Below, one piece after another: positions 12,907 to 63,315 of a stretch of DNA of 64,000 bases. Numbering within the stretch: the stretch's first letter is position 1; the number at the start of each line of letters is the position of its first letter. Origin of the DNA: Candidatus Iainarchaeum sp. (GTDB lineage: Archaea; Nanobdellota; Nanobdellia; Pacearchaeales; GW2011-AR1); assembly GCA_043815085.1 (NCBI GenBank), contig JBDRJG010000001.1:1594-65593 (forward strand). Reading direction: 5' to 3'. The position numbers and the translations under genes are program-made. The notes under the pieces were generated by a model. It did no database searches. It was not told where the DNA came from and was given only the letters and a program-made list of their open reading frames with translations.

Positions 12907-12986
12907 CGCCCCCAGCAGGAATCGAACCTGCGAGCCCAAAGGGCCTGGTTCTCAAGACCAGTGCAATACCACTATGCGATGGAGGC
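12907..12986 (-). tRNA. tRNA-Ser (anticodon UGA), class II with a long variable arm
   Basis: Hand-folded cloverleaf. The acceptor stem is GCCUCCA/UGGGGGC. The D-loop is AGUGGUA. The anticodon stem CUGGU/ACCAG closes loop CUUGAGA, giving anticodon UGA. The variable arm is 13 nt (GCCCUUUGGGCUC). The T-arm is GCAGG-UUCGAUU-CCUGC. The discriminator is G. No CCA is encoded. Confidence 0.7.
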
Positions 12987-49065: not shown

Positions 49066-50078
49066 TTTTTAGATTCGATTATCTCTTTAAATCTCTTTTG
49101 AATCCTCCTTATATCTAAATCTCTTGGGGGCTTATTATCATTATACCAAGGCTCTCTAAGAATCTTTTCATATAATTTATCATCATTATCGACTTTTATT
49201 ATATATTTTATAAATTCCTTCATATTTTTAAAATCATTATAGTTTATGAAACTTTTTGTGTTGAACTCTTTATTTACATCTTTATGTCCAAAATAAATTG
49301 GTATACTGTTTACTAACATGGGATGAGTTAGTTTCTCTGATATATACCCTGACCTTGAAGAATTTTCAAATGCAGTCGTAAATTTATATTTTTTTATGAA
49401 ATTTAATTTATCTATTACACAACTTGCAGAAATCCTTGATTCTTTTGGACTATTGTATCTTATTGGGGGCATATTGTTCATGCATCTTCCAGGAGCATCA
49501 ATTTTCTTGTATTTACTTAATTCTTTAAAAAAATCGTTTCTTTTGGCAATATCACGAGCATAAATAAAATTACAGAATTCAGTTTTTTCTTTTTTTATTT
49601 TATTAAAATTAATTTTCTTTTTTATCGTGGGAATTCCAAAGTTTTTTAACTGATAATCATTAACTATAATTATGAGTTTCATATGTCTTGGATTATTTAT
49701 TTCTTCTTCAGGATATTCTGAGAAAGCCCAACCACATTTATTCATATTTGGTTTTATAAGTTCTGAACCAAAGAAAATTTTTACAAAATTTCCCTCGGGC
49801 AGGGGAAATTTGTCTTTTATAGAAAAATTGGAAATCTTTGAATAAATTTCCCTTAATAAAATATATAATTTAGGGGATATTCTCCTTATAAAATCTCCTT
49901 TTTTTGATAAATCTCCGGAAGTCTTTATTTCTTGATAAACAGAATAAAAAAGATAATCTGGATTTTCGCTTATTTTAACATCATATAAGTTTCTAAGGGT
50001 ATTAGTAAGAAAGTTATTTTCTGGGTTAAATCCCTCCCAAAAATACTTGAAGTTTATTTTTATTGTTTTCTTTTTCAT
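49062..50078 (-). CDS. GT10-like alpha-1,3-fucosyltransferase, putative
   Basis: 338 aa. KYKFTTAFENSSRSGYISEKL matches the alpha-1,3-FucT motif (YKFxxAFENSxxxxYxTEK). Confidence 0.6.
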   Translation of the reverse strand: MKKKTIKINFKYFWEGFNPENNFLTNTLRNLYDVKISENPDYLFYSVYQEIKTSGDLSKKGDFIRRISPKLYILLREIYSKISNFSIKDKFPLPEGNFVKIFFGSELIKPNMNKCGWAFSEYPEEEINNPRHMKLIIIVNDYQLKNFGIPTIKKKINFNKIKKEKTEFCNFIYARDIAKRNDFFKELSKYKKIDAPGRCMNNMPPIRYNSPKESRISASCVIDKLNFIKKYKFTTAFENSSRSGYISEKLTHPMLVNSIPIYFGHKDVNKEFNTKSFINYNDFKNMKEFIKYIIKVDNDDKLYEKILREPWYNDNKPPRDLDIRRIQKRFKEIIESKK

Positions 50079-50121: not shown

Positions 50122-51633
50122 TTATTTTCTCTTAAATATGCCCTTAATTAATCCAAAATCTTCTCTATTTATCCCTTTTGTTAATATTAAAACTCCAAAA
50201 TAAACTCCTGCCCCCAGGATTATTTCCAATACCCCGAAGAATAGATTCATATTAATAAAATGGCTAAAAGCTAATAAAAAAATAGACATTATTGCTGTTG
50301 CAAATATTGGGCTCCTTAAGCCAATCCCCTTAACTTTAAAATTAAATTCTTTTTTTGCATAAAAGACAAGTAAACCTAACAAAAGTATTCTACTAAGAGA
50401 GGTTGCTAATCCAACCCCCGCCATCATAAATAAAGGATTATTTTTAAATAAAAAGATTACTAAAACATTTAACAAAATGTTTATAAATAAAGAGAAAAGA
50501 ACTGATTTGCTTACTATTTGTGGTTTTTCTTTTGATTGGAAGATTATTGAATATAATCCAATTAGAGGAGTTGTAACTATCAAAAGAGCTAAAAAATAAA
50601 GGGGGATTGTTCCAAGAATATATTCATTTCCATAAATTGCCTTAATTAAATATTTAGCTATAAAAATCATCCCTGCAGTTGCGGGTATTGAAATAATTAA
50701 TATGTACCTCAAAGTCTTGTGAAATCCTCTGCTAAATCTTTTTCCATTTATCTGGGTAAAAATTGGAAGAAATATACCCGACAAAGAAAATAAAGCGGCA
50801 ATTGTAAGAACTAAACTCAGTGCTACCCTATAATATCCTAAATATTCAAATGCAACAAATTTACCCAACATTAATGTATCCACAGAACCAAAAAATACAA
50901 GAGAAAGGCTAGCAACCCCCATAAACTCTAAAAATTTCAAAACCTTTTTTTTGTTTATGTATACTTTTGGACCAAAAAATAAATTTCTATCTCTTTTAAA
51001 TAATATTAAGATTGTTATAAACAAAACAATCGCTCCTGAAACGAAAAATGCTATAAATAAACCCGAAACCTTAAAAGCATCTGAAAGAATCATGAGTGCT
51101 AACAAAGAAAATGAAATCTTAAAAATTTGATAAAAAACACCTAATATTGTTGGAATCCTTAGTTCTTTTAGTGCAAGAAAAAAAGTGGAAAAGAAATTCC
51201 AAAAAGACTCCATAATTAAAAAGAGGCAAGAAAAGATTAAGGGGTAAAATAATAAAGGATTTTGATATAATTTATAAGAGATTAGCTTTGACAAAATAAT
51301 TACCATAACAACGACTATAAAAACTGCCAAAACTTTTATCCTTAATAAAAATCTGAAATAAGAGCGTGCCTGAGATATCTTTCTCCTGCCGATGGAAATT
51401 GATAAATATCTTAACAGAGTATCATCTAATCCAAAATTTGTAAAGACCATAAATATTGCTATTATTGACAAAACTAAAGAATAAACACCAAATAATTCTG
51501 GTAAAAGCATTCTTGCAATAATTATAGTAAAAATTAATCCTCCAATTTTTAGGATTATGCTAGAAAATAAATTGTAACCTGTATTTTTCACAGATACTTT
51601 TGACAGATTTTGATTATTTATGCCTACTTCCAT
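50122..51633 (-). CDS. oligosaccharide flippase (MOP/Wzx-like polysaccharide biosynthesis protein)
   Basis: 503 aa, about 14 TM helices. Typical Wzx/MATE-like topology in a glycan cluster. Confidence 0.65.
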   Translation of the reverse strand: MEVGINNQNLSKVSVKNTGYNLFSSIILKIGGLIFTIIIARMLLPELFGVYSLVLSIIAIFMVFTNFGLDDTLLRYLSISIGRRKISQARSYFRFLLRIKVLAVFIVVVMVIILSKLISYKLYQNPLLFYPLIFSCLFLIMESFWNFFSTFFLALKELRIPTILGVFYQIFKISFSLLALMILSDAFKVSGLFIAFFVSGAIVLFITILILFKRDRNLFFGPKVYINKKKVLKFLEFMGVASLSLVFFGSVDTLMLGKFVAFEYLGYYRVALSLVLTIAALFSLSGIFLPIFTQINGKRFSRGFHKTLRYILIISIPATAGMIFIAKYLIKAIYGNEYILGTIPLYFLALLIVTTPLIGLYSIIFQSKEKPQIVSKSVLFSLFINILLNVLVIFLFKNNPLFMMAGVGLATSLSRILLLGLLVFYAKKEFNFKVKGIGLRSPIFATAIMSIFLLAFSHFINMNLFFGVLEIILGAGVYFGVLILTKGINREDFGLIKGIFKRK

Positions 51634-51736: not shown

Positions 51737-51880
51737 ATGGCAGATATTTTATGTACAATCATGGGTGTTATGGATATAATTGCCGGAATATTAATTATTC
51801 TTAATTTTGGAAACAATATTCTCGGAATTATTTTTGGCATTGCGATGATTGGAAAAGGGGGATTTAGTTTGATAGGATGA
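51737..51880 (+). CDS. small hydrophobic peptide (47 aa) translationally coupled to the downstream radical SAM gene
   Basis: Manual translation gives MADILCTIMGVMDIIAGILIILNFGNNILGIIFGIAMIGKGGFSLIG. It is Gly/Ile-rich with a C-terminal GKGG. Its TGA stop overlaps the ATG of the 51877 gene (ATGA). It is absent from the ORF track because it is under 60 aa. Confidence 0.5.
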   Translation: MADILCTIMGVMDIIAGILIILNFGNNILGIIFGIAMIGKGGFSLIG

Positions 51881-53301
51881 AAAATTCTAAAGATAAAGTT
51901 TTGCTGGTGACTAGTAGTTGTGAGGATACCCCTTTTGTTCCTGAAGGTAGATTTAATGAACTATCCCATTATCCTATTGGTTTAGCATATTTATATTCTT
52001 ATATTGAATCAAAGGGATTTGATGTTAAAATGCTCTCCCATAATCATAAATCAGATAAAGATTGTTTTAAAGAAGTTATAGAAGAAATAGAAAATTTTTC
52101 TCCAGACATTGTTGGTTTTCAAATATTAACTTCAAACAGAGTTAGTAGCTATCATTTAATTGAATATATACATCAAAATTATCCAAAAATTAAAATAATA
52201 GTCGGGGGGATTCATGTTACAATAATGTATAAACAATTAATTGAAAAATATCCTTTTTTAATAGCAGTTCTGGGTGAGGGTGAAATAACTTTGTTTGAAT
52301 TGATTAAGGAATTAGATAAAAAAAGCCCCAATCTTAAGAAAATTGATGGACTTGGATTTTATAAAAACAATAGCGTAATGAGAACAAAACCAAGAAAATT
52401 AATAGAAAATTTAGATACTCTGCCTTTTCCAAAGCATGAACTATTTTTTAAAAATCCTAAAAGAGATTCTGGATGTCTCTTAACTTCAAGGGGGTGTTAT
52501 TTCTCATGTAGTTTTTGTTGTTTAAATCCAGAAGCAAAAAGAATTGTAAGATTTAGGTCTCCAAAAAACGTTGTTGATGAAATAGAATATATGGTTAAAA
52601 GTTTTCCACAAATGACAGAAATATTCATACATGATGATTCTTTTTTTAGCAACAATGAAAGAGTTATAAAAATTTGTGATGAAATAATTAAGCGAAAAAT
52701 AAAAATGAATTTTGTGTGTGAAGGTAGAATTAAGCCTATAAGCAGCGAAATGATTAAAAAACTGGAACAAGCTAATTTTAAAAGAGTTCTATTGGGTATA
52801 GAAAGTGGAGACAATGGAATTTTAAAGGCTTGCCATAAGGGAATAAATCAAGAAGATATATTGCATGCCTTCAAATTATTTTCAAAATCTTCTATAAATC
52901 TTAAAACACTTTTGATTATTGGTCTGCCCGGAGAAAATATAGGAACAATAAAAGAAACTGTCAGATTTATAAAAAAATGCCAAAAAATAAAATATGTTTC
53001 TTATGGTAATATCAAACCCCTACTAATGGTTTTTCCTGGAACAGAAGTTTATGAAATTGCAAAGTCAAAGGGAATGATTAATGATAATTATTGGCTCTCT
53101 GAAAAAGTAATTCCTCTATATACTATAGAAAACAGTTATGAAAGACTGAAAGAACTTGGGAATATCCTCTTAGATAATATTGCTTTTAGCAGAATAATCA
53201 CTCCAAAAGGATTTAGAGCTCAATTTGATATGATTCCTTATTTAACAAAATATTTACTAATTAAAGTGATGGAAAAAATAAAAAAAGATATTAAAGATTA
53301 A
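51877..53301 (+). CDS. B12-binding domain radical SAM protein (class B), paralog A
   Basis: 474 aa. DIVGFQILTSNRVSSYHLIEYIHQNYPKIKIIVGGIHVT is the B12-binding domain. CxxxCxxC is SRGCYFSCSFCC. Confidence 0.75.
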   Translation: MKNSKDKVLLVTSSCEDTPFVPEGRFNELSHYPIGLAYLYSYIESKGFDVKMLSHNHKSDKDCFKEVIEEIENFSPDIVGFQILTSNRVSSYHLIEYIHQNYPKIKIIVGGIHVTIMYKQLIEKYPFLIAVLGEGEITLFELIKELDKKSPNLKKIDGLGFYKNNSVMRTKPRKLIENLDTLPFPKHELFFKNPKRDSGCLLTSRGCYFSCSFCCLNPEAKRIVRFRSPKNVVDEIEYMVKSFPQMTEIFIHDDSFFSNNERVIKICDEIIKRKIKMNFVCEGRIKPISSEMIKKLEQANFKRVLLGIESGDNGILKACHKGINQEDILHAFKLFSKSSINLKTLLIIGLPGENIGTIKETVRFIKKCQKIKYVSYGNIKPLLMVFPGTEVYEIAKSKGMINDNYWLSEKVIPLYTIENSYERLKELGNILLDNIAFSRIITPKGFRAQFDMIPYLTKYLLIKVMEKIKKDIKD

Positions 53302-53356: not shown

Positions 53357-54790
53357 ATGAAAAATTTTAAAAATAAAGTTTTGCTGATAACAAGCAGTTT
53401 TGAAGACCTTTTGACAGATGAAGGAAAGATGACTGAGGAATGGGGTGAAGAAACATATTACCCCTTGGGGTTGGCTTATATACATTCTTATCTTGAATCT
53501 AAAGGTATGGAGGTAGAGACCCTCTGGCTTAATCACAAACCATATGAGAATTGCTTTAAAGAAGTAATTGATAAGGTAAAATATTTTGCTCCTGATGTTG
53601 TGGGTTTTCAAATGCTAACTTGTAATAGGGTGAGTAGTTATTATCTGATTGAATGGATACATAAAAATTATCCTAAAATTAAAATAGTCCTTGGAGGAAT
53701 TCATTCTACGATAATGTATAAACAATTAATTGAAAAATATCCTTTCTCAATAACAGTGCTTGGTGACGGTGAAATAACTCTCTTTAAACTTATAAAAGAA
53801 TTGAACAAAAAAAGCCCCAATCTTAAAAAGATTGATGGAATTGCATTCTATAAAAATAATAGTGTAATAAGAACAAAGGCAAGAAAATTAATAGAAGATT
53901 TGGACAGTCTACCTTTCCCCAAGCATGAAGTATTTTTTAATTATAGTAAAAGATGGACTGGTAGTTTGTTAAGTACAAGGGGATGTCCTAATGCATGTAG
54001 TTTTTGTTGCCTAAATCCTGAGTCTAAGAGGATTGTAAGATTCAGAGATCCTAAAAAAGTTGTGGATGAAATAGAATATATGATAAATAAATTCCCCCAG
54101 ATGAAAGAACTTTCCATAAACGACGATTCTTTTTTTGTTAATAATCAAAAAGTAATAGATATTTGCAATGAGATAATAAAGAGAAAGATAAAAATGGATT
54201 TTGTGTGTAGTGGGAGAATTAAACCAATAAGTAAAGAAGTTGTTGAAAAACTTGAAGAAGCCAATTTTATAAGGGTTACACTTGGTATAGAAAGTGGAGA
54301 TGATGGGATATTAAAATCCTGCCATAAAGGAATAAACCAAGAAGATATTCTAAAGGCATTTAAATTATTTTCTAAATCAAATATACATCTTAAAACCTAT
54401 TTAATCATCGGTTTACCTGGAGAAAGTATAGAAACAATAAAAGAAACTGCCAGATTTATAAGAAAATTACAAAAAATAAAATATGTATCCTATCCTACCT
54501 GTTTCAATATTCTTTTTGTTTATCCCGGAACAGAAGTTTATGAGATTGCTAAATCAAAAGGATTTATTGATGATGAGTTTTGGCTTGCTGACAAGCAGAT
54601 TCCATTATATACTGCAGAAAACAGTTATGAAAAGCTGAAAGAATTTGAAAAAATCCTCGCGGATAATCTATCTTTTTATAGGATAATGACTCCGAAAGGG
54701 TTTAAGGCCCAATTTGAAACTATCCCTTACTTATTAAAATATGGTTTTCAAAGAATAGCGACGCTGTTAAAAAAAGGAAGATTGCTCTAA
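53357..54790 (+). CDS. B12-binding domain radical SAM protein (class B), paralog B (tandem duplicate of 51877-53301)
   Basis: 477 aa. It is collinear with paralog A along the whole length, by eye roughly 70% identical. CxxxCxxC is TRGCPNACSFCC. Confidence 0.75.
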   Translation: MKNFKNKVLLITSSFEDLLTDEGKMTEEWGEETYYPLGLAYIHSYLESKGMEVETLWLNHKPYENCFKEVIDKVKYFAPDVVGFQMLTCNRVSSYYLIEWIHKNYPKIKIVLGGIHSTIMYKQLIEKYPFSITVLGDGEITLFKLIKELNKKSPNLKKIDGIAFYKNNSVIRTKARKLIEDLDSLPFPKHEVFFNYSKRWTGSLLSTRGCPNACSFCCLNPESKRIVRFRDPKKVVDEIEYMINKFPQMKELSINDDSFFVNNQKVIDICNEIIKRKIKMDFVCSGRIKPISKEVVEKLEEANFIRVTLGIESGDDGILKSCHKGINQEDILKAFKLFSKSNIHLKTYLIIGLPGESIETIKETARFIRKLQKIKYVSYPTCFNILFVYPGTEVYEIAKSKGFIDDEFWLADKQIPLYTAENSYEKLKEFEKILADNLSFYRIMTPKGFKAQFETIPYLLKYGFQRIATLLKKGRLL

Positions 54791-55709: not shown

Positions 55710-56420
55710 TTAAATTTGTCCCATATATCCTTCTCCGTGAGGATAATTTTCTAAAGCATGTTTATAAGAAATAGGGACCCCCGTATCAAACCAAGTAAAT
55801 ACTTTCCCAGACATTCTTTTATCTATCAAGGCTTTGAATCCATTAGAAACTTGTATTTCCCCAAAAATTAAATTTTTATTTGATTCAAGTTGTTCCCAAA
55901 AATAATCATAATCTTTTATTCCAGATAATCCAATGAATGCATATTCGTTATCTGTTTTTACTTTATCATCAATCCTTACTACTATTTTTTCATCATTCAT
56001 TTTTGCTGAACAAAATCTACTTGTATCATTAACTTTTGCTAATCCAAACCAGTTTTCATCTGGAGGGGGAACTTCTTCTCTAACTAAGGTATCTGCGGCA
56101 AAAAAGATAAATGGGCATTGAAGGTCTTCTTTACACTTCAATAATGAGTAACCGGGGCCTGTCCCTGGACCAATATATTTATCAACTTCTACATGAACCA
56201 ACTTTCTTTTTGGATATGCATGATTAAGGTAAGAAATTAATTGGTCTTTTTTATATCCTACAGCTATTACAATTTCCACGTCTTCTGGAAATTTTTCTAT
56301 TATATGACAAATAGATGGCTTTCCATGAACTGGAATAAGGGCTTTATTAAAAATATTAGAAAACTCTCCAATACGGCTTCCAATTCCTGCAGCAAGGATA
56401 CAAACTTTGTAGTTTCCCAT
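55710..56420 (-). CDS. sugar-phosphate/phospho-base nucleotidyltransferase (stand-alone paralog of the N-terminal domain of 59569-61167)
   Basis: 236 aa. KVCILAAGIGSRIGEFSNIFNKALIPVHGKP is the NTP-transferase G-rich loop. It is highly similar to the first roughly 230 aa of the 532-aa fusion protein. Confidence 0.65.
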   Translation of the reverse strand: MGNYKVCILAAGIGSRIGEFSNIFNKALIPVHGKPSICHIIEKFPEDVEIVIAVGYKKDQLISYLNHAYPKRKLVHVEVDKYIGPGTGPGYSLLKCKEDLQCPFIFFAADTLVREEVPPPDENWFGLAKVNDTSRFCSAKMNDEKIVVRIDDKVKTDNEYAFIGLSGIKDYDYFWEQLESNKNLIFGEIQVSNGFKALIDKRMSGKVFTWFDTGVPISYKHALENYPHGEGYMGQI

Positions 56421-56456
56421 ATTAATATTAAATGAAATTATTTATAAACTTATTTC

Positions 56457-57389
56457 TTAACTCTTTCCAATAGCTCTTCCATAAGCATTTTCAAGAACTA
56501 ATAAATTTTCTAAATTATTGGCCGCAATAACTGCATCAGCATTTTCAATATCGTATCCTTCTGTTTGAATTAATTCTCTAGAGGGGGAAAGATAATAACA
56601 TCTAGATTCTCCTCCTGCTTCATTAACATGTAAAAGTCCAACAACATCGAATGGACCTCCAATTGCAGTTGTTATATTTCCAACAAGCAAGGGTCTTCCT
56701 TGGGCTGTAAGTGCATAATGGCTTCCATTACTCTGGGAAGAGCTTTCTTTAGCTCCTGCATTTTCAAGTTCATTTGATAAGGTTCTTCTTCCTTCTTGTG
56801 TTAACATTTCTTTTAATCCATTTTTTGTTTTTCTCTTAAATGGAAAGGGTATATCCACTAAAACTATTGAATCGTCCTTTATTTTATGATTATTTACTTT
56901 AATAGGCACCCCATTTTCATATACCCATTTTTGAGAGGGATAATCAAAAATATTCTTCCAAGCTCCTTCTCCTTTAGCTGAAAACCATGCTCTCCCTGTA
57001 GAAGGTTCCATTGTTCCGCAAGCTAAAACCTCTTTATTCTTAGAATCATAAGCACCCAAAATAACTGTTGGGGTTGGGACCCCCACTAAAAATCCTCCTG
57101 TTCCATCTAAAGGGTCATGATAAATAACAATATTAGATTCCAAATTTCCAATCTCTTCATCTGATTCTTCTTGATTTAACCTATATTGTCCTAAATCTCT
57201 TTGAATTATTGGAAGTGCTAAAGCTTGGCTTGTTGTATCTACAATAGTTACTGCTGATTTATCTCCTTTTATAATATATTCAGACAGATCAACTTCTCCA
57301 AGAATTGCTTTCCTAATATAATTAGAGGAAACTGCTAATGCTTCTTTAGAACATTCAATGAATTTTCTTGCGTCAAAGTATTCTTCCAT
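56457..57389 (-). CDS. inositol monophosphatase/FBPase family phosphatase
   Basis: 310 aa. IVIYHDPLDGTGGF contains the IMPase DPxDGT motif. Confidence 0.65.
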   Translation of the reverse strand: MEEYFDARKFIECSKEALAVSSNYIRKAILGEVDLSEYIIKGDKSAVTIVDTTSQALALPIIQRDLGQYRLNQEESDEEIGNLESNIVIYHDPLDGTGGFLVGVPTPTVILGAYDSKNKEVLACGTMEPSTGRAWFSAKGEGAWKNIFDYPSQKWVYENGVPIKVNNHKIKDDSIVLVDIPFPFKRKTKNGLKEMLTQEGRRTLSNELENAGAKESSSQSNGSHYALTAQGRPLLVGNITTAIGGPFDVVGLLHVNEAGGESRCYYLSPSRELIQTEGYDIENADAVIAANNLENLLVLENAYGRAIGKS

Positions 57390-57455
57390 ATTTTCCCAAC
57401 AATTGCTTGGTTTTTAAATTTTATTGTTGTAAAAACATATTTATTTTATTTTAAA
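57387..57455 (-). promoter_or_regulatory. duplicated promoter/5' leader element, copy 1 (the twin is at 58095-58150)
   Basis: Roughly 60 nt near-identical sequence (AAATAAAATAAATATGTTTTTACAACAATAAAATTTAAAAACCAAGCAATTGTTGG(G)AAAATATGGAA) running into the start codon of the IMPase-family gene. Confidence 0.6.
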
Positions 57456-58109
57456 TTGTTCATAACTGTAATAATCAAATCCTTTAGGAGTGAAAATAAA
57501 ATGCCCCACATCAACTATAAATGGTTTGCTTTCACCCAACGCAGGCATTTCATTTATTACTTTTATTATATCTGATATATTATTAGGATTTCTTTCCTCT
57601 GTGAACCTATTTACTGTCATGTGGGCTCCCCAAGCTAAAGTAGTTTCTAATCCTCTTTGTTTAGAATTTTTACCAATTTCTTGCATTGTATTAAAGAAGT
57701 TTTCATCTGGATTTCCTTTTGCGATTAAACTATTTTTATTATACAACCAAGAATCATAATTTATTGTTGGTCTTCTTAACCCCTTAACTGAGGAATCAAC
57801 ACTTTTTGATAATTCTTCTAAAACTCCTTTATCTAATGAAAAATCATCGCTTGTGCCTTCAACAAGAATTGTTGTATGTAAATTAGATTTATCATAAATA
57901 ATTGAGGGAATTATTTCTGAAACTTTATAAGAGACATTTGTAGCAGACTCTACAATCTTATCTGGATGTCTAAATACAATTAAGTATGAGCCTTGATATT
58001 TTGGAATATTTGGAACAACCCCTGTTTCTTCTAATGAAGAAGATTCCATTCTGCTATAAATTGAATTTTGCTTTTCTAAAAAATCTTTGAATTCCATATT
58101 TTCCAACAA
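57441..58109 (-). CDS. 2H phosphoesterase superfamily protein (LigT-like), putative
   Basis: Two H-x-T-x motifs (NLHTTILVEG; GAHMTVNRF) about 85 aa apart. The duplicated 5' leader shared with the downstream gene points to a start at the internal ATG at 58097 (MEFKDF...). Confidence 0.5.
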   Translation of the reverse strand: MLENMEFKDFLEKQNSIYSRMESSSLEETGVVPNIPKYQGSYLIVFRHPDKIVESATNVSYKVSEIIPSIIYDKSNLHTTILVEGTSDDFSLDKGVLEELSKSVDSSVKGLRRPTINYDSWLYNKNSLIAKGNPDENFFNTMQEIGKNSKQRGLETTLAWGAHMTVNRFTEERNPNNISDIIKVINEMPALGESKPFIVDVGHFIFTPKGFDYYSYEQFKIK

Positions 58110-58150
58110 TTGCTTGGTTTTTAAATTTTATTGTTGTAAAAACATATTTA
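58095..58150 (-). promoter_or_regulatory. duplicated promoter/5' leader element, copy 2
   Basis: Same element immediately upstream of, and including, the ATG of the 2H-phosphoesterase gene. Confidence 0.6.
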
Positions 58151-58152
58151 TT

Positions 58153-58587
58153 TTATTTGTGTTCTGAATCTATTCTCCCTGAAGGTCTTTCTCCATCATC
58201 CAAAACTCTTATAACATCGTCAACGTGGGGAGTTGATACTTCTTGTAAAATAATATCTGTAAGGGCAATAACTCTATGCTTTCTAGGAGGAACAACTGTG
58301 AAAGAATCGTCTGCTTTCATTAATCTTTTTTCTATTTTTCCTTTTTCATTTTCCAACCAAACTTCTGCCTTACCTTCAATAATATAATTTGTTTCTATCT
58401 TTCTTTCATGGTATTGGAAACTGGTCTTTTCCCCCTTATTGATGTAAATTCTTTTATAACAATAACCCCTTCCGTTAGAATCTTCCCAGAGCTCTAACCA
58501 AACTTCTTTTCCCCAAGGCTTTTTTACTGTGCATGGAAAAGTATAATTTTCATATCCCCTTGGCCTATGTAGTTTTGGTCTATCCAT
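58153..58587 (-). CDS. cupin-domain protein (mannose-6-phosphate isomerase type II-like cupin)
   Basis: 144 aa. KPWGKEVWLE...YCYKRIYINKGEKTSFQYHERKIETNYIIEGKAEVWLEN matches the PMI-type cupin motif. Confidence 0.55.
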   Translation of the reverse strand: MDRPKLHRPRGYENYTFPCTVKKPWGKEVWLELWEDSNGRGYCYKRIYINKGEKTSFQYHERKIETNYIIEGKAEVWLENEKGKIEKRLMKADDSFTVVPPRKHRVIALTDIILQEVSTPHVDDVIRVLDDGERPSGRIDSEHK

Positions 58588-59572
58588 AATGATTAATCGC
58601 CTCCATTATTTCTTTAATTATATTCTCTTTTATATCTTCTCTTTTTTCTAGTTCATTAATTATTCTTTTATAACTTTCTGAAGAAAAATGATAATGTCCG
58701 GCAATCGTACAACATAAAAACTTATTTTCAGGCTTATTTTTATGCATCCATTTTCCCCATTTCTTTTCATTATAAACTTCTTCTAAAAAATCTTCAAAAT
58801 TAATGCCATACATTAAACATTTACTTAAGACAATGCTTGTTTGGATAACTCCTAATTGGGGGGCAATATTCATTGCGTCAACAATCCCTTTTCTAGACTC
58901 AATTTCTTCTTTAGATAGATAATCTGCATTATGTTCTTTTAATTTTATTCCTTTTTCTTTCATAATTTTGGATACTCTTTCTACAAATTGCTTATTAAAA
59001 TTTCCAATCTGGTTGATTTCTTTAATAAGGCTCCCAGTTTGAATAACATAGAATTCTGGTTTACAAAATTGCAGGAAAAAATCTATTTCTTTCTCTATCT
59101 CTTCTAAATTAATTATCCCAAAATTGGTTCCAATATTTTCGTCAGTTCCCATTTCAAGTGAGATTGAGTGATTCAACCTTAAACAATATTCTACTGCTTT
59201 TTTAGATTCTTGCAACATTTCGTCGTTATTTCCCTTAAAATGACAGAAATCTATATGAATTAAATCAAAACCTAACTCTATATCTGATTTTATGGTTTTA
59301 TAGGTATCTTCTAAATCATAATTTCCATTAAATCCTGGTCCACAGTGATCACGACATATTCTTACATTGCTATTTGGATATTTTTGCCTCATAACCTTTA
59401 TAAAATTCATAAATTCTTTAGTCGTCCAATTGTTCACATATCCGCCAGAGTAATCTATTTGATTTTTAGACGCTATAATCATTAATTCTTTTCTATGATA
59501 ATTAGATACTCTAAAAATTGCTTCGATTATTTCTGTACTCATTGGACCTATCCCTAAATTAGAATTAATCAT
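58580..59572 (-). CDS. GatZ/KbaZ-like protein (tagatose-bisphosphate aldolase non-catalytic subunit / tagatose-6-P kinase family), putative
   Basis: 330 aa. GIGPMSTEIIEAIFRVSNYHRKELMIIASKNQIDYSGGYV...RICRDHCGPGF parallels the GatZ N-terminus (GIxSVCSAHPxVIEAAL...IEATSNQVNQFGGYTG...GGDHLGPN). Confidence 0.45.
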   Translation of the reverse strand: MINSNLGIGPMSTEIIEAIFRVSNYHRKELMIIASKNQIDYSGGYVNNWTTKEFMNFIKVMRQKYPNSNVRICRDHCGPGFNGNYDLEDTYKTIKSDIELGFDLIHIDFCHFKGNNDEMLQESKKAVEYCLRLNHSISLEMGTDENIGTNFGIINLEEIEKEIDFFLQFCKPEFYVIQTGSLIKEINQIGNFNKQFVERVSKIMKEKGIKLKEHNADYLSKEEIESRKGIVDAMNIAPQLGVIQTSIVLSKCLMYGINFEDFLEEVYNEKKWGKWMHKNKPENKFLCCTIAGHYHFSSESYKRIINELEKREDIKENIIKEIMEAINHYG

Positions 59573-61167
59573 GTTATTGTTCCAATTTCTTTTAATGCAT
59601 AATAAAGTTTGCTCTTTCCCAAAAAATATAGCATTAAATCAAAAGGATCATTGTGCAAAGGGGACATATTTAAAAAAATTAATGCCATTAATAATTTTAT
59701 TTTTTTAAAATCATATCCATTCTTTGTTATAAAAGATTCAAATTCTTCTTTTGCCTCTAAGAGATTGTTTTTTATAGAAAAGTCATAATAAACACTGGAA
59801 CCGCTAATATCAAAAGAGAAGTCTCCTTTTTTTATTAACTGATAAGAAAGATTTATTCCCCCATATAGTTTTGCCAAATCATAATATACATCCCCATATT
59901 TAGTTAAACCGCCAAAATCTTGTCTCCAATCCAAAAGAACAAATTTTTGCAAATTACTTTTTAAGTCTACTGTTACAAGAACATTATCAAATTGTAAATC
60001 CCCGTGAAAATTACTTGGTGTTCCTTCAATTAGATATTTCCAATCAATTTTTTCTAAAAGATCTTTTAAAGGAGGAATTTGAACCCCATTAATATTATTC
60101 CATCCGTCTTCTATCCCTGTTTTTTTATAAAATTGGTCTAATCTTTCAATAGTCTTATCATAATAGAATCTTTTGCATGCTTCTTGAAATTGCTTTTTGT
60201 TTTCTTCATCAAGATCCTGAATTTTCCAAAGATAACTCTTGGTCCAATGAAGAAAATCTTTGACTAATTGTCTATTTATTACATCATACAAAACTTGCCC
60301 ATCTATTTTTTTATAACAATAAAAATTTTCACTCTGTGATTCTATTTCTGGACATAGAGTAGAAAGATATCTTGCTCTCTCAATTCTTTTTTTTACTATA
60401 TTGGAGTCTCCAAAAAACTTGATAACCCTCCCATTTACAAAATAAATAAATTCATTTCCCTTACTAAAATCAAAATTACTTGTTGCGCCAGAAAAACTTT
60501 CATTGGTTTCTTTATAATTTTTAAAATTTCCAGTATCAAACCAAGTTACACCTATAGGAACAAGCTTCTTTTCAATTAATCTACTAAATCCATTAGAAAC
60601 TTGAACTTCCCCACTCTTTAATTCCTTGTTTTTTTCAAGACCATCAAAATATTCATTATAATCTTTAATCCCTGCAACTCCTATAAAAGCAAATTTATTA
60701 TCACATTTTATTTTATCATCCAATTGATATACTAAATTATTTTTTATTTTGACAGTGCAATATGGCTCAGTTTCCTTTACTGGAGCAATTCCAAACCAAT
60801 TTTCAGTTGGTTCTGGAATTTTTTCTAAAATAATTGTGTCTGCTACAAAAAATATAAATGGGCATTGTAATTGATCTTTACATTTTAATATAGAATGCCC
60901 TGGACCGGTTCCAGGCCCCATATACTTATCTACTTCAACATAAGTTATTTTTCTTTCAGGGTGGGCTAAACTAAGATAACCAATTATTGTTTCTTTCTTG
61001 TGTCCAACAGCAACAACTATCTCCACTTCCTCTGGAAATTTTTCTATTATGTAGGAAATCACTGCCTTATTATTTATGGGCAAGACTGCTTTGTTCACGT
61101 TTTCTGTTAGTGCTCCCATCCTATTTCCCACACCCGCAGCAAGAATGCAAACTTTGTAATTATTCAT
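59569..61167 (-). CDS. bifunctional nucleotidyltransferase / kinase (APH/choline-kinase-like fold) fusion protein
   Basis: 532 aa. The N-terminal roughly 230 aa NTP-transferase domain (KVCILAAGVGNRMGALTENVNKAVLPINNK) is paralogous to 55710-56420. The C-terminal domain has a Brenner-type HGDLQFDNVLV catalytic loop and FVLLDWRQDFGG. Confidence 0.65.
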   Translation of the reverse strand: MNNYKVCILAAGVGNRMGALTENVNKAVLPINNKAVISYIIEKFPEEVEIVVAVGHKKETIIGYLSLAHPERKITYVEVDKYMGPGTGPGHSILKCKDQLQCPFIFFVADTIILEKIPEPTENWFGIAPVKETEPYCTVKIKNNLVYQLDDKIKCDNKFAFIGVAGIKDYNEYFDGLEKNKELKSGEVQVSNGFSRLIEKKLVPIGVTWFDTGNFKNYKETNESFSGATSNFDFSKGNEFIYFVNGRVIKFFGDSNIVKKRIERARYLSTLCPEIESQSENFYCYKKIDGQVLYDVINRQLVKDFLHWTKSYLWKIQDLDEENKKQFQEACKRFYYDKTIERLDQFYKKTGIEDGWNNINGVQIPPLKDLLEKIDWKYLIEGTPSNFHGDLQFDNVLVTVDLKSNLQKFVLLDWRQDFGGLTKYGDVYYDLAKLYGGINLSYQLIKKGDFSFDISGSSVYYDFSIKNNLLEAKEEFESFITKNGYDFKKIKLLMALIFLNMSPLHNDPFDLMLYFLGKSKLYYALKEIGTIT

Positions 61168-61411
61168 TTTGTTCAGAAAAAAATTTAATATTAAATAAGG
61201 GATGCATAATTATAACCAATATATTCTCTCTTCCTGTTCTTCTCATTTTTACTCGATTATCCTGTGAGCGACCTTAACTTATTTTTATATGTTCTTGTCC
61301 GCTTTTTAATAATCACTGATAGATAAATTAAGTTATTTATAAAGTTTGTGGAATATTTTTATATAAATTCTTTATACAAAAATTCTTAAAGACTGATTTT
61401 TAATAATAGAT

Positions 61412-62833
61412 ATGAAAGTATTGTTTGTTTATCATAATAGGGTAGAAGATGGTTATATGCCCCAAGTAATCGCCATTTTAGGAGGAGCACTCAAACAAGA
61501 AGGAATAGAAACTAAATTCTTTGATACAACTTTTTACAGAGATAAAAACGATATTTTTATAAATAACGATAGAAAAGTTAGAGAATCTCAAAAAAAAGGA
61601 GGGTACCAACCTGTCCAAGGATTCGGCTTTGAAAGAGAGGTAGTCGACCTCAAAGAAAAATTTTTAGAAGTAGTAGAAGAATACAAACCAGATTTAATTG
61701 CTGCAACTTCTACATCTTTTGAGTTTAATTCTCTTTTGGATTTTATCCTTCCGGCTAAAAAGAAATTTAATGTTCCTGTTATTGTGGGGGGATCACATGC
61801 CACAGTGGTTCCTGAAAAAGCAATCCAGAAAGAGGGGGTTGATTTTATATGTGTCGGACAAGGAGAGAAACCCTTACTTGAACTTGTCCGAAGAATGGAA
61901 AATAGAGGAGATATCACAACTATCCCTAGTCTGTGGATTAAATCTCCTAACGGAGAAATAATAAGAAATAAAATTGGGCTGCAAATTGAAAATATGGATG
62001 ATACTCCCGAAGCAGATTGGGATTTAATAGATGAAAGACACAGGATACGGCCATTTGAGGGTGAAGTAAAAAGATATGGTTGGTTTGAGATAAGCAGAGG
62101 ATGCCCTTATAGCTGTAGTTATTGTATTAATTCAAAATTGCACAAAATAGAGCTAGAGGGGGGAGTAAAACCTGGAGCTTATAGATTTTTTTCCCCAAAA
62201 GAGATAATAAGAAGAATGAAAAAATATAAAGAAAAATATGGTTTTAATCATGTGCAGTGTATAGATGAAAATATGGCTGCAATGCCTTTAGAGAAATTAA
62301 AGGAACTTGCTAAACTATACAAAGAAAATATAGGGTGTAGTTTTTTCACACAAAGCAGACCCGAATGTTTTGTTACGAGTCCCGAAAAAGCAAAAATAAT
62401 GGCTGAAATGGGTTGTAAGATGGTTGGTCTTGGTGTTGAAAGTGGAAATGAGGAATTGCGTAGGACCATACTAAATAGGCCAATGAAAGATGGAATTGTT
62501 GAGGAGGCTGTAAGAATATTAAAAAACTCTGGAATTATGGTTGCGACATATTATATTATAGGATTTCCAACTGAAACAGAAGAGATGATTAAACAGACTA
62601 TTGATTTACATAGAAGAATACAACCAGATAGATTTTCTGTTAGATTTTTACATCCTTTCCCAGGAACATCTATAAGAAATATTTGTGTTAAAGAAGGATA
62701 TATTTCAGATAATTATGAGGATATTAATTCGGATGCTTCTTTTTTCAGAGACCCAGTTTTAAATCTTCCTTCTCCTCCACACCCTACAAAAGAAAGACTA
62801 AAAGAGCTGAGAGAAGAATTTGAGAGATATTAA
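61412..62833 (+). CDS. B12-binding domain radical SAM protein (class B)
   Basis: 473 aa. N-terminal B12-binding domain (PDLIAATSTSFEFNSLLDFI...VIVGGSHAT). CxxxCxxC is ISRGCPYSCSYC. Confidence 0.75.
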   Translation: MKVLFVYHNRVEDGYMPQVIAILGGALKQEGIETKFFDTTFYRDKNDIFINNDRKVRESQKKGGYQPVQGFGFEREVVDLKEKFLEVVEEYKPDLIAATSTSFEFNSLLDFILPAKKKFNVPVIVGGSHATVVPEKAIQKEGVDFICVGQGEKPLLELVRRMENRGDITTIPSLWIKSPNGEIIRNKIGLQIENMDDTPEADWDLIDERHRIRPFEGEVKRYGWFEISRGCPYSCSYCINSKLHKIELEGGVKPGAYRFFSPKEIIRRMKKYKEKYGFNHVQCIDENMAAMPLEKLKELAKLYKENIGCSFFTQSRPECFVTSPEKAKIMAEMGCKMVGLGVESGNEELRRTILNRPMKDGIVEEAVRILKNSGIMVATYYIIGFPTETEEMIKQTIDLHRRIQPDRFSVRFLHPFPGTSIRNICVKEGYISDNYEDINSDASFFRDPVLNLPSPPHPTKERLKELREEFERY

Positions 62834-63315
62834 TTATTAATCTCTTTCTTTCCTCCAAAAAAAATCTTGTTAATTTTTATACAAGCATCACAAACAGCCC
62901 CCTCCCCAGAATTGGAAGGAGTTATATATTTGGCCCAATTTTTTGCTTCAATTCTTGCATTGGCTGGAGCAATACCAAATAAGCAATCTCTAATTATTAG
63001 GGCATCAAATATGCCATCACCAATAAAAATAGTATTTTTAAACCCAAACCTCTCTTTTATCCACATAAACCTATCTCCTTCTGGCACAAGCTCTATTTTA
63101 TAACCCATTTCTTCAATCCTTTTCTTAGAAATTGCAAAGCCCCTCTTATCTGCACTAATAAAAAAGATATTTAATTTATCTCTAATCAATTTAAGACCAT
63201 CAGAATCATGGGGTCCAAAAATCTTGTATGCCTTTCCTTTTTCAGAATATAAAAATTGTCCTGTGGTCATTACTCCATCTACATCTAAAACAAAATTCAA
63301 TTTCTTATTTTCCAT
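62830..63315 (-). CDS. KdsC-like HAD-superfamily sugar-phosphate phosphatase (subfamily IIIA)
   Basis: 161 aa. FVLDVDGVMTTGQFLYSEKGKAYKIFGPHDSDGLKLIR...FIGDGIFDA are the KdsC/NeuNAc-9-P phosphatase-type motifs. Confidence 0.65.
   Translation of the reverse strand: MENKKLNFVLDVDGVMTTGQFLYSEKGKAYKIFGPHDSDGLKLIRDKLNIFFISADKRGFAISKKRIEEMGYKIELVPEGDRFMWIKERFGFKNTIFIGDGIFDALIIRDCLFGIAPANARIEAKNWAKYITPSNSGEGAVCDACIKINKIFFGGKKEINN

Follow-up and report, generated by a model that had tools for sequence, protein, structure and literature searches.

A syntenic gene cassette of small archaea, bacteria and marine phages that probably produces a nucleotide-activated rare sugar

The pathways leading to GDP- and ADP-heptose involve GmhA, HddA or HldE, GmhB and HddC, HldE being a fusion of a kinase and a nucleotidyltransferase (NTase). 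The closest characterised system to the cassette described here is the UDP-arabinose route of certain phages. In phage HY126, AfhE is bifunctional, combining a MurU/LicC-like N-terminal domain (UDP-arabinose pyrophosphorylase) with an APH-like C-terminal domain (D-arabinose-5-P kinase), AfhF is a HAD phosphatase acting on the 1,5-bisphosphate, and both stand downstream of a sugar-phosphate isomerase (PMC13326640). The equivalents of the arabinose-5-P isomerase, AfhE and AfhF are gp55, gp53:52 and gp51 in RB69 and gp83, gp82 and gp81 in DLP3 (PMC13326640). GatZ and KbaZ, which are also relevant here, are F6P/T6P 4-epimerases for which the conditions used in an earlier study revealed no aldolase activity, and E. 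coli yields free tagatose from F6P by means of GatZ and a phosphatase (PMC11907403).

The window, that is, the whole stretch of 64,000 nucleotides analysed, carries an archaeal island of glycan genes, among them AglB/STT3, one transferase of the GT4 family and others of GT1, GT2 and GT10, Wzx and Glf. The original prediction placed seven adjacent minus-strand genes at 55710–63315. All seven ORFs are real, but they are not all adjacent, since a plus-strand gene for a B12 radical-SAM enzyme (61412–62833) parts the KdsC-like gene from the other six, which form a tight operon with overlaps of 4 and 8 nt and gaps of 36–51 nt. Apart from the 222-aa ORF, each of the seven has an exact entry in a public protein collection, where the source is a Candidatus Diapherotrites MAG. 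Of the seven domain calls six stand, the “2H phosphoesterase” assigned to the 222-aa protein being the one that does not, and a core member lying outside this interval, an SdhL-type dehydrogenase gene running from 63305 to beyond 64000, had been omitted.

Conservation was assessed on 160 related loci, 80 cellular and 80 viral (IMG/VR). The core of the module is the NTase-kinase fusion, a short GatZ-like protein, a PMI-type cupin, a HAD phosphatase and a dehydrogenase which is either of the SdhL type or a FabG-like SDR. The first four had been correctly named as members, whereas three further genes that had been counted in, for the IMPase-like protein, a second NTase and the 222-aa protein, are accessory and restricted to a few lineages. 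Fusion, GatZ-like, cupin and HAD genes are contiguous and co-oriented in 66–72 of the 80 cellular loci, which span DPANN, CPR, Omnitrophota, Planctomycetota and Verrucomicrobiota as well as Elusimicrobia, Bdellovibrionota, a Legionella MAG and Thaumarchaeota; cupin, fusion, SdhL-like and GatZ-like genes occur together in 71–75 of the 80 IMG/VR loci. The cupin was counted in 72 cellular and 75 viral loci. Far from being scattered in related genomes, the genes are syntenic in most loci of both sets, and their clustering is far beyond chance.

The cupin is fused N-terminally to the NTase-kinase in 79 of the 80 viral loci and in locus L072, and L041 and L044 possess an NTase-kinase-GatZ-like fusion. 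The GatZ-like gene is absent from L029, L108, L153 and L164, where an RPE-like epimerase and a SIS isomerase occur; L029 and L164 carry both SIS isomerase and cupin, and no cupin homolog was detected beside the fusion in L108 and L153. These multi-domain fusions, together with the exchange of GatZ-like protein and cupin for RPE-like epimerase and SIS isomerase, indicate that the parts belong together. Non-orthologous displacement, which affects the dehydrogenase, the HAD and the GatZ-like/cupin pair, indicates in addition that the replaced activities are required. The cassette is widespread and horizontally mobile, occurring in tiny archaea and tiny bacteria as well as in other bacteria and in marine phages.

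From the families to which the domains belong, the conservation of their catalytic residues and the synteny, fusions and displacements observed, we infer the substrates, step order, sugar identity and nucleotide of a pathway by which the cassette probably makes a nucleotide-activated rare sugar from a common sugar phosphate, to be used in surface glycans by the neighbouring glycosyltransferases and the N-glycosylation island. A central ketose phosphate, fructose-6-P being the simplest candidate, would first be epimerised by the GatZ-like metalloenzyme and the resulting ketose phosphate converted to an aldose phosphate by the PMI-type cupin. The C-terminal kinase of the fusion would then phosphorylate C1 to give a sugar 1,omega-bisphosphate, the HAD phosphatase (KdsC-like in the window) would take off the terminal phosphate, and the N-terminal NTase domain would form an NDP-sugar from the sugar-1-P and an NTP. 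A ketoreductase step, presumably catalysed by the SdhL-type enzyme in the window and by the FabG-like SDR elsewhere, would also lie within the pathway, with no place assigned among these steps. Local add-ons, perhaps constituting a second branch or introducing a methylation, would be the IMPase-like phosphatase, the second NTase and the B12 radical-SAM enzyme. This retains the central idea of the original prediction, a self-contained conversion of a ketose or higher sugar phosphate into a nucleotide-activated donor by heptose-1-P-like logic, but revises its gene set and sets aside its CDP-choline option.

The NTase-kinase fusion (59569–61167, minus strand; 532 aa) was correctly called, and its kinase is APH-like. 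Pfam and NCBIfam identify residues ~1–225 as a RmlA/GalU/MurU/LicC-like sugar-phosphate nucleotidyltransferase and residues ~236–532 as a small-molecule kinase of the APH/choline-kinase fold, with the HxDxxxxN and DW motifs intact and the conserved kinase motifs HGDLQFDN and LLDWRQDF. AF2 models reached a pLDDT of 84.6 for the full length and 91.4 for the kinase domain. At E<=1e-30 the family comprises 819 clusters (50% identity) in a representative library; kinase and NTase are fused throughout it, the best 150 of the 819 clusters all aligning full length, which speaks against an antibiotic phosphotransferase unrelated to the NTase. Hhalign relates the fusion to RB69 gp52 and gp53 (E 5.5e-5 and 7.9e-5, the alignment covering the catalytic motifs); its probability against AfhE-type proteins, taken as single sequences, was 61–66%, which amounts to weak homology.

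By sequence, the NTase domain has its best PDB match in LicC (1jyk, E 1.3e-6), and its Foldseek matches are NTases. Those of the kinase domain include ethanolamine/choline kinases, APH(2''), a putative fructosamine-3-kinase and macrolide phosphotransferases (TM 0.4–0.53); they are distant (9–16% identity), the best being ethanolamine and choline kinases and not known anomeric sugar kinases. Such matches would suit a phospho-alcohol donor of the LicA/LicC or CDP-alditol kind, where an alditol or other alcohol made by the reductase is released by the phosphatase and re-phosphorylated by the kinase, after which the NTase produces a CDP-linked donor to be transferred as a phosphodiester decoration; the conserved reductase would likewise be suited to alditol formation. 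We consider this improbable. For the kinase domain the generic APH model is the only match, Choline_kinase appearing at E 0.04–0.24 in just two of six diverse members, and the NTase domain aligns full length, sugar-binding half included, with sugar-1-P enzymes of the RmlA, GalU and ST0452 types. Neither the glycan island of the window nor the recurrent neighbours contain LicD, TagF or another phosphotransferase family, and a PMI-type isomerase would be superfluous. LicA and LicC (choline kinase and CTP:phosphocholine cytidylyltransferase) do pair a kinase with an NTase, both folds being those of the fusion, but the cassette has no Choline_kinase signature, LicB or LicD, and its partner genes specify sugar-phosphate enzymes, all of which argues against the CDP-choline alternative first proposed.

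The GatZ/KbaZ-like class II aldolase-fold protein (58580–59572, minus strand; 330 aa) matches PF08013 with 33.4 bits, the cut-off being 26.7, and its closest structures are GatZ 2fiq (E 2.6e-9) and 3txv. Residues D75, H76, E140 and H214 are invariant in 20 diverse homologs and are the equivalents of GatZ catalytic Asp87-His88, Glu171 and His257 (roles taken from PMC11907403), such that the Asp-His/Glu/His metal site is conserved. It differs from GatZ and KbaZ in length (these have about 420 residues), in the replacement of GatZ Glu44 and Cys20 by Ile33 and Met11, and in its setting, an anabolic nucleotide-sugar cassette instead of a galactitol or GalNAc catabolic operon. Neither the Pfam-scanned genes at 32.5–64 kb of the window nor the families that recur as neighbours include a GatY/KbaY partner. 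Because of the two replacements its substrate may differ from F6P/T6P. We propose that it is a metal-dependent ketose-phosphate epimerase employing a retro-aldol/aldol mechanism; alternatively, it could form a C–C bond and give a higher sugar.

In the latter event it would be a metal-dependent aldolase or transaldolase building a C7 or C8 ketose phosphate, which would then be isomerised, 1-phosphorylated, terminally dephosphorylated and nucleotidylated, a sub-case of the preferred pathway that differs in its first step alone. GDP-heptose synthesis and the lincosamide octose pathway (LmbR/N/P/K/O) are models for such a route. In its favour, the heptose pathways combine kinase, phosphatase and NTase in the same way, the HAD is of the KdsC type and C8 and C9 sugar phosphates are substrates of that family, the profile matches of the NTase domain include HddC-type NTases (5xhw; NF049965), and a Gmd/DmhA-like 4,6-dehydratase adjoins the cassette in 36 of the 160 loci, the window organism included. 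We nevertheless judge the odds to be low, as the characterised PF08013 members GatZ and KbaZ are the 4-epimerases mentioned above, without aldolase activity in the earlier study (PMC11907403), and in four loci it is an RPE-like epimerase, not an aldolase, that stands in for the GatZ-like protein.

For the second step of the preferred, epimerase-initiated pathway we propose the type II PMI-like cupin (58153–58587, minus strand; 144 aa) as the aldose-ketose isomerase of a sugar phosphate. Its original assignment is borne out by PF07883 and PF01050, both exceeding the Pfam cut-offs; it matches the C-terminal region of GMP_PMI, and the PMI-type motifs are intact.

The KdsC-type HAD phosphatase (62830–63315, minus strand; 161 aa) was likewise rightly named, matching TIGR01670 with 51.5 bits, under the cut-off of 107 for that model, as well as a KDN-9-P phosphatase model (E 9.5e-10) and PF08282. 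It is syntenic in 66 of the 80 cellular loci. Viral loci have in its place a 120-aa DxDGT HAD matching PNK-phosphatase-type PHROGs, one of them phrog_1238, which is labelled “phosphoheptose isomerase,” as RB69 gp51 is in RefSeq, and a direct BLASTP comparison of this small HAD with gp51 gave no alignment. Neither type lies within the fetched flanks of about 22 of the 80 viral loci.

We propose that the KdsC-type enzyme takes the terminal phosphate off a sugar bisphosphate. The same genes might operate in another, salvage-like order without a bisphosphate intermediate, in which epimerase, isomerase and reductase act on the sugar phosphate, the HAD frees the rare sugar, and an anomeric kinase and then the NTase follow, in the manner of AmgK-MurU or of FKP, the fucokinase/GDP-fucose pyrophosphorylase. 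Gene content is identical for the two orders, and kinases of unphosphorylated small molecules are among the Foldseek matches. HADs of the KdsC and GmhB/PNK types, the types found here, are typical for removal of the terminal phosphate from phosphosugars, which speaks against it. The annotation table of PMC13326640 does list, for RB69 and DLP3, dephosphorylation of Araf5P to Ara and phosphorylation of Ara to Araf1P, and GatZ plus a phosphatase does release free tagatose from F6P (PMC11907403). The AfhE that was tested, however, acts on the 5-phosphate, giving the 1,5-bisphosphate that AfhF dephosphorylates (PMC13326640), and we regard the salvage-like order as rather unlikely. The kinase, phosphatase and NTase logic of the bisphosphate route thus has a precedent in a protein of the same NTase-kinase architecture working with a HAD phosphatase.

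The SdhL-type (shikimate-dehydrogenase-fold) NAD(P) oxidoreductase is encoded on the minus strand from 63305 to past 64000, its C-terminal ~232 codons lying in the window and the frame being open to the window end; a Logan contig from this organism (L081) contains the complete gene, of 268 aa, which there overlaps the KdsC-like gene. Its best PDB relative is 1npy, Haemophilus influenzae HI0607 SdhL (E 1.8e-84, full length), with which it shares the N-terminal motif S..RPSNFG..HN; SMPxK and NTD are invariant and the Lys/Asp dyad is intact. The gene occurs in 50 of 80 cellular and 75 of 80 viral loci. In cellular loci it and the FabG-like SDR (19 loci) are mutually exclusive, no locus having both, and the 11 of 80 with neither dehydrogenase are mostly short contigs. 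Unlike HI0607, the protein is thus part of a sugar-activation cassette and interchangeable with a FabG-like SDR, which argues for a keto-sugar or sugar-phosphate substrate and not shikimate. A solved SDH-fold enzyme that reduces a keto-sugar is 5-ketofructose reductase (7cok).

Of the accessory genes, that for the stand-alone NTase (55710–56420, minus strand; 236 aa) had been properly recognised (PF12804, 37 bits), and its product is a paralog of the N-terminal domain of the fusion (56% identity over 226 residues, against fusion residues 1–225). A separate NTase of this kind is present in about 12 of 80 cellular loci, from DPANN archaea and some CPR bacteria. The adjacent IMPase/FBPase-family phosphatase (56457–57389, minus strand; 310 aa), also correctly assigned (PF00459, 47.5 bits; DPLDGT motif present), occurs in 7–8 of 80 cellular loci, mostly adjoining a stand-alone NTase, and is possibly a second bisphosphate phosphatase paired with it. 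The orphan protein of 222 aa (218 aa according to NCBI; 57441–58109, minus strand) has no Pfam or NCBIfam match and no PDB relative, and hhalign against a genuine 2H-like neighbour from a related contig gave a probability of 0.3%. Four homologs in all were found among 5.8 billion clusters, none carrying a Pfam domain; in L164 one again lies between a stand-alone NTase paralog and the fusion gene, and a search of the 160 loci for a homolog of the ORF scored none. The B12-binding radical-SAM enzyme (61412–62833, plus strand; 473 aa; PF04055 and PF02310) has as its best NCBIfam matches B12-rSAM methyltransferase families, all under the cut-off, and is probably an accessory methylase of the sugar or glycan. 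By tblastn such genes are near the cassette in 14–17 of 80 cellular loci, and in L016 a 69%-identical copy stands directly after the cupin.

The GDP- and ADP-heptose pathways follow the same logic of ketose-phosphate isomerase, C1 kinase, HAD phosphatase for the terminal phosphate and NTase as is proposed for the cassette, which, like them, is often adjoined by a Gmd/DmhA-like dehydratase. HldE, too, joins kinase and NTase, in reversed domain order. The parts, however, are all non-homologous or related at the superfamily level only, with a cupin for a SIS isomerase, an APH fold for a GHMP kinase or ribokinase and a KdsC-type for a GmhB-type HAD, and the cassette has extra epimerase and reductase steps.

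The phage UDP-D-arabinose pathway comes closest, sharing an N-terminal MurU/LicC/RmlA-like NTase joined to a C-terminal APH-fold kinase with the same kinase motifs, a dedicated HAD phosphatase and sugar-phosphate isomerase alongside, and the proposed sequence of isomerase, 1-kinase, bisphosphate phosphatase and pyrophosphorylase. Sequence kinship is remote (hhalign E about 5e-5), the phage isomerase is of the SIS type instead of a cupin, and the HAD of the cellular cassettes is of the KdsC type, unlike that of the phages. The cassette has a GatZ-like protein and an SdhL/SDR dehydrogenase as two additional core enzymes, and lies in a glycan or N-glycosylation island as opposed to a DNA-hypermodification block; its sugar is probably one other than arabinose.

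All seven ORFs on which the original prediction of an activated-sugar module rested are present on the minus strand in the positions predicted. They specify a stand-alone nucleotidyltransferase (NTase; 55710-56420), an IMPase-family protein (56457-57389), an orphan protein of 222 aa (57441-58109), a cupin with a type II PMI C-terminal signature (58153-58587), a GatZ/KbaZ-like protein of the class II aldolase fold (58580-59572), a 532-aa fusion of an NTase with an APH-like kinase (59569-61167), and a KdsC-like HAD phosphatase (62830-63315). The seven are not adjacent, as had been proposed: six form a tight operon, which is separated from the KdsC-like gene by a plus-strand gene for a B12-binding radical-SAM protein (61412-62833). 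The predicted set also ended one gene early. A minus-strand gene for a protein with the shikimate-dehydrogenase (SDH) fold extends from position 63305 to beyond the end of the window; in L081, a Logan contig from the same organism, it is complete, specifies 268 aa, and overlaps the KdsC-like gene. HMM scans upheld the assignments of the NTase, IMPase, cupin, GatZ-like protein, fusion and KdsC-like HAD, that of a 2H phosphoesterase alone being lost. All of these domain matches are weak and most lie under the curated equivalog cut-offs; the proteins are therefore divergent members of their families. The interpretation placed upon the genes, that they convert a sugar phosphate into a nucleotide-activated donor or a phospho-base donor such as CDP-choline, is partly supported overall.

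The supposed 2H phosphoesterase, the 222-aa ORF, has no match in Pfam, NCBIfam or the PDB. Two HxT-like tetrapeptides (LHTT and AHMT) can be discerned by eye only, and hhalign gave a probability of 0.3% for its relationship to a genuine 2H-like protein which adjoins its homolog in a related contig, leaving the assignment unsupported. Only four homologs, none with a Pfam domain, were found in 5.8 billion protein clusters, and none in the 80 cellular loci compared here. Despite this near-orphan status the homologs are 57-70% identical, and in one further locus (L164) the gene again lies between a paralog of the stand-alone NTase and the fusion gene.

The N-terminal domain of the fusion matches PF12804 and PF00483 and, among proteins of known structure, LicC (1jyk), GalU and RmlA at the sequence level; LicC is the best of these, over the N-terminal 70-105 residues only. 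Foldseek comparison of a full-length model (pLDDT 84.6) recovered GalU, ST0452, RmlA, MurU and HddC. The equivalog model for HddC-type NTases (NF049965) gave 27.6-29.8 bits, far from its curated cut-off of 300. PDB sequence searches with the fusion, as a single sequence or as a profile, matched the NTase half alone and returned no relative of the kinase domain, and NTases likewise dominated the fold matches to the full-length model, for which reason a separate model of the kinase was built. The latter (pLDDT 91.4) resembles ethanolamine and choline kinases, APH(2''), a putative fructosamine-3-kinase and macrolide phosphotransferases, all at a distance (TM 0.4-0.53, 9-16% identity). This C-terminal APH/choline-kinase-fold domain possesses the HxDxxxxN catalytic motif and the Mg-binding Asp; across 26 sequences its motifs HGDLQFDN and LLDWRQDF show little or no variation.

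Two other readings of this kinase have to be weighed. A choline-activating system of the LicA-LicC type might have been expected from the LicC match and from the choline kinases among the structural neighbors. The kinase domains of six diverse members, however, all fit the generic APH model (PF01636) and not Choline_kinase (PF01633), which appeared in just two of the six, with E values of 0.04 and 0.24, and was not listed for the window's protein; moreover no LicD-type transferase or LicB transporter is found among the Pfam assignments for the 32.5-64 kb portion of the window. The CDP-choline reading is accordingly rejected. Nor is the kinase an antibiotic phosphotransferase without any tie to the NTase, since the fusion is kept throughout the family and is syntenic with enzymes of sugar phosphate metabolism.

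The GatZ-like protein scores 33.4 bits against PF08013 (gathering score 26.7), over residues 14-122 only; in profile searches its nearest structural relatives were GatZ itself (2fiq, E 2.6e-9 over 209 positions) and 3txv (E 7.6e-9). GatZ and KbaZ are 4-epimerases of fructose-6-phosphate and tagatose-6-phosphate, with Asp87 and a zinc site composed of His88, Glu171 and His257 (PMC11907403). In 20 diverse cassette proteins D75, H76, E140 and H214 are invariant. The first two align with GatZ D87 and H88, and the KEHNaDY sequence aligns with the AHSTDY motif of GatZ; the equivalence of E140 to Glu171 and of H214 to His257 was set by motif correspondence. At the positions of GatZ Glu44 and Cys20 the cassette protein has Ile33 and Met11, respectively.

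The SDH-fold protein is of the SdhL class, its match to HI0607 (1npy) extending over the full length [1.8e-84]. Residues S12, P17, G21, N26, K69 and D105 are invariant, the N-terminal motif and Lys/Asp dyad of HI0607 being retained. The tyrosine which contacts the shikimate carboxylate in AroE structures is not conserved. Against the NF009202 equivalog the window's protein scores 193 bits and the others 220-261, which do not reach the cut-off of 306. To our knowledge the physiological substrate of SdhL (HI0607) is still unknown. One solved member of the SDH family, 7cok, is a 5-ketofructose reductase, and so provides, by analogy, a precedent for the reduction of keto-sugars by this fold. In E. 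coli ST648 sdhL lies directly upstream of an L-sorbose PTS operon, expression being reported only in that strain (PMC12817954); this is another hint that SdhL-class substrates may be ketohexoses rather than shikimate. The phosphatase, which scored 51.5 against a cut-off of 107 for TIGR01670 and 37.1 against 208 for NF007019, belongs to the same HAD subfamily as KdsC, without being its equivalog.

A word-indexed search recovered about 2000 relatives of the fusion at E<=1e-5, with identities of 62-81% across DPANN archaea and CPR bacteria. An exhaustive profile search at E<=1e-30 yielded 819 clusters (50% identity), and the best 150 of the 819 all match the fusion over its full length. From genome contigs nothing was obtained with a single-protein query, loci being recovered with an alignment-based one; the plasmid collection contained no homolog. 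The window's proteins were then mapped onto 80 cellular loci from species-representative genomes. The cupin (72/80), GatZ-like protein (71/80), KdsC-like HAD (66/80) and SDH-fold protein (50/80) are common, and these four genes flank the fusion nearly always on the same strand. The IMPase-like gene is present in seven loci and a separate stand-alone NTase in about 12. Carriers include Woesearchaeota, Nanoarchaeota, Pacearchaeota and many Patescibacteria, and more remotely (37-45% identity) Omnitrophota, Planctomycetota, Verrucomicrobiota, Elusimicrobia, Bdellovibrionota and SAR86, together with a Legionella MAG and a Thaumarchaeota MAG. The fusion, GatZ-like protein and cupin of this DPANN archaeon share 60-73% identity with their counterparts in several CPR bacteria, among them Falkowbacteria and Buchananbacteria (L007, L011, L020 and others). 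Such values are unusually high between domains of life and imply that the cassette passed recently between archaea and bacteria.

Unbiased clustering of the neighboring ORFs revealed a FabG-like classical SDR in or beside the cassette at 19 loci, most often with the GatZ-like gene on one side and the cupin on the other. It never accompanies the SDH-fold protein: no locus has both, and the 11 with neither are mostly short contigs. From this mutual exclusion it follows that the dehydrogenase step belongs to the core. At four loci the GatZ-like gene is absent and a protein of the ribulose-phosphate-3-epimerase (RPE) family and a SIS isomerase adjoin the fusion (L164, 8980-11440; L029, 3-1018; L108, 9583-10774; L153, 11200-12391), the cupin homolog likewise being undetected in L108 and L153. 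In L164 the RPE-like epimerase is fused to a C-methyltransferase-like domain, which is otherwise the product of a separate gene of 380-430 aa at about 18 loci. NTase-kinase-GatZ-like fusions occur in L041 and L044, and among the cellular loci one cupin-NTase-kinase fusion was found (L072). Taken together, these displacements and fusions indicate that six activities, those of an epimerase, isomerase, dehydrogenase, kinase, phosphatase and NTase, are maintained whichever protein family supplies each.

The cassette is frequent among viruses: in IMG/VR a relative was confirmed on 162 contigs. The 80 loci fetched from these have the cupin in 75 cases, and 71-75 of them display the order cupin, fusion, SDH-like, GatZ-like; in 79 the cupin, NTase and kinase constitute a single ORF of about 635 aa. 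At the two loci inspected (L109 and L116) a 120-aa HAD with a DxDGT motif lies 3' of the GatZ-like gene. Two small-HAD families are represented at 38 and 20 viral loci (up to 58/80), and the KdsC-like HAD, whose place the 120-aa HAD takes, at only nine. Matches of the small HAD in PHROGs are to families of the polynucleotide-kinase-phosphatase type, among them phrog_1238, labelled "phosphoheptose isomerase"; neither the GatZ-like nor the SdhL-like protein is represented there by a family. Marine virus AG-345-E15 (GenBank MH319741; L083, L166) carries cupin-fusion-GatZ-like together with genes for a T4-type DNA polymerase, a DnaB-like helicase and a ribonucleotide reductase and a CobS-like gene. 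Judged by this gene content, some at least of the viral carriers are real phages. A DPANN archaeon and CPR bacteria share 57-75% identity, and phages carry the cassette too; both facts point to surface-glycan chemistry having passed recently between the domains, among ultra-small symbionts and their viruses.

In the window the cassette follows an archaeal N-glycosylation/polysaccharide island (33406-55547), which specifies a GT4 family transferase (34293-35285), an STT3/AglB of 948 aa (35327-38173), UDP-galactopyranose mutase (Glf; 47015-48112), a fucosyltransferase-like GT10 (49062-50078), a Wzx flippase (50122-51633), FkbM-, TylF- and other methyltransferases, GT1 and GT2. The stretch before the island contains a gene named SecY by NCBI (30003-31394, plus strand), preceded by small co-oriented plus-strand ORFs at about 20-30 kb, and the sole RNA gene detected in the window, a tRNA-Ser(TGA) (12907-12986, minus strand). 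Four plus-strand genes for B12-binding radical-SAM proteins, two of them tandem paralogs, are distributed through this region (43668-44939, 51877-53301, 53357-54790 and the 61412-62833 gene within the cassette). Homologs also occur by the cassette in other genomes: a copy 69% identical directly follows the cupin in the cellular locus L016, for example, and the viral locus L137 has three in succession; these enzymes may C-methylate the sugar or the glycan. Just past window position 64000 are found a 409-aa protein without Pfam domain (L081, 1046-2275) and, two genes from the SdhL-like gene, a GDP-mannose 4,6-dehydratase-like (Gmd-like) gene (L081, 1-819). The 409-aa family adjoins the cassette in 24 of the 160 cellular and viral loci, from archaea, bacteria and viruses (L001, L002, L006, L014, L030, L066 and about 15 viral loci), and is a candidate for a transferase dedicated to the cassette product. 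In 36 of the 160 a related extended SDR is encoded no more than 6-8 kb from the cassette, a hint that a 6-deoxy sugar is made downstream, from the product itself or from a parallel pool of GDP-mannose. The Gmd-like, C-methyltransferase-like, Glf and 409-aa neighbors collectively suggest that the product is tailored further and has a dedicated transferase.

From the families to which the proteins belong, their intact catalytic residues, the synteny, and the fusions and displacements observed here we infer the substrates, order of steps, sugar and nucleotide as follows. In the scheme with the best support a ketose phosphate would be epimerised by the GatZ-like enzyme and the resulting sugar phosphate isomerised by the PMI-like cupin; the kinase domain of the fusion would then phosphorylate C1, the HAD phosphatase would dephosphorylate the bisphosphate, and the NTase domain would form the NDP-sugar. 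A ketoreductase step would come in at some point of this route. Candidate products include an NDP-talose or an NDP-galactose-type hexose derived from tagatose-6-phosphate or, should the GatZ-like protein form C-C bonds, a higher sugar. The window's stand-alone NTase is 56% identical to the N-terminal domain of the fusion, and one might speculate that this paralog and the IMPase-like phosphatase constitute a second branch.

The PMI-type cupin, the neighboring Gmd-like gene and GT10 had prompted another reading, plain GDP-mannose synthesis with a bypass of phosphomannomutase; as the whole story this is not favored, since it leaves the universally conserved GatZ-like and dehydrogenase genes unexplained. 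A 6-deoxyhexose route from trioses, in which an aldolase would act on DHAP and methylglyoxal or lactaldehyde, was set aside for two reasons: the characterised members of PF08013 epimerise ketose-6-phosphates unphosphorylated at C1 (PMC11907403), and in the variant loci it is an RPE-like epimerase that replaces the GatZ-like protein. We tentatively propose, with rather low confidence, that the cassette specifies an undescribed de novo route to a rare nucleotide-sugar (for example an NDP-D-talose-, tagatose-, or galactose-derived or higher sugar), in which sugar phosphates are processed by a short enzyme of the GatZ type and a ketoreductase of the SdhL type ahead of a kinase/pyrophosphorylase resembling AfhE of phage HY126. 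Were this true, SdhL and the short GatZ-like clade would acquire their first physiological roles, and CPR bacteria, DPANN archaea, T4-like marine phages and other bacteria would be exchanging the cassette as a mobile module that diversifies glycans. If the scheme set out above is right, it constitutes a new and very widespread way to an activated sugar, found in two domains of life and in viruses, and would supply testable functions for two classes of protein without an evident physiological role, SdhL (HI0607) and the short GatZ-like clade. All five core proteins are of small size, and in vitro reconstitution straight from the sequences is feasible.

The full-text literature search returned nothing relevant to the cassette, the link to AfhE coming from a broader search. 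In the phage UDP-arabinose route for DNA arabinosylation, as summarised in 2026, an arabinose-5-phosphate isomerase acts first; the C-terminal APH-like domain of the bifunctional AfhE then converts Araf-5-P to the 1,5-bisphosphate, the Mg-dependent HAD phosphatase AfhF removes the 5-phosphate, and the N-terminal MurU/LicC-like domain of AfhE is the UDP-arabinose pyrophosphorylase, the equivalents in phage RB69 being gp55, gp53:52 and gp51 (PMC13326640). The fusion has the same domain order and structural neighbors as AfhE. With hhalign its kinase aligned with RB69 gp52 [5.5e-5, probability 66%] over 236 columns through HxDxxxxN, D..R and YD.AK, and its NTase with gp53 [7.9e-5, probability 61%]; tblastn at 1e-10 did not recover RB69, and BLASTP of the viral small HAD against gp51 produced no alignment. 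The two hhalign results are coherent, if weak, evidence for a possible remote homology. An intermediate NTase-kinase relative, 24% identical over 95% of the length, is found in 9183-type Enterococcus phages. In phage 9183 this distant protein, gp047 (L082, NC_055907, 29756-31731), adjoins a small gene annotated 'phosphoheptose isomerase' within a nucleotide metabolism block (dTMP kinase, ThyA, dUTPase, RNase H, TK and DNA polymerase), which looks, from its gene content, like an AfhE-like DNA-glycosylation module.

As in the AfhE/AfhF system a dedicated HAD phosphatase and a sugar-phosphate isomerase are encoded alongside the fusion, but their folds are unlike those of AfhF and the SIS isomerase. 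Unlike the arabinose system, the window's cassette is not surrounded by a DNA-hypermodification block (5hodCMP synthase, arabinosyltransferases, nucleotide kinases); its neighbors in the window are glycosyltransferases, AglB, Wzx, methyltransferases and radical-SAM proteins, and glycan genes recur beside it elsewhere. It also differs from the heptose pathways. No SIS-fold isomerase like GmhA (sedoheptulose-7-P isomerase) was found in the region, where the cupin is the isomerase candidate, a SIS protein appearing only at the four RPE variant loci, and the kinase is of the APH/ChoK fold and not GHMP (HddA) or ribokinase-like (HldE). Nucleotide-sugar cassettes with a kinase-pyrophosphorylase fusion were known already. 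What is new is that a GatZ-like enzyme and an SdhL-type dehydrogenase are combined with one, and also the breadth of the cassette and its sharing among DPANN, CPR, other bacteria and phages. The logic is common to the AfhE/AfhF and heptose pathways, here built partly from other folds and with two enzymes added.
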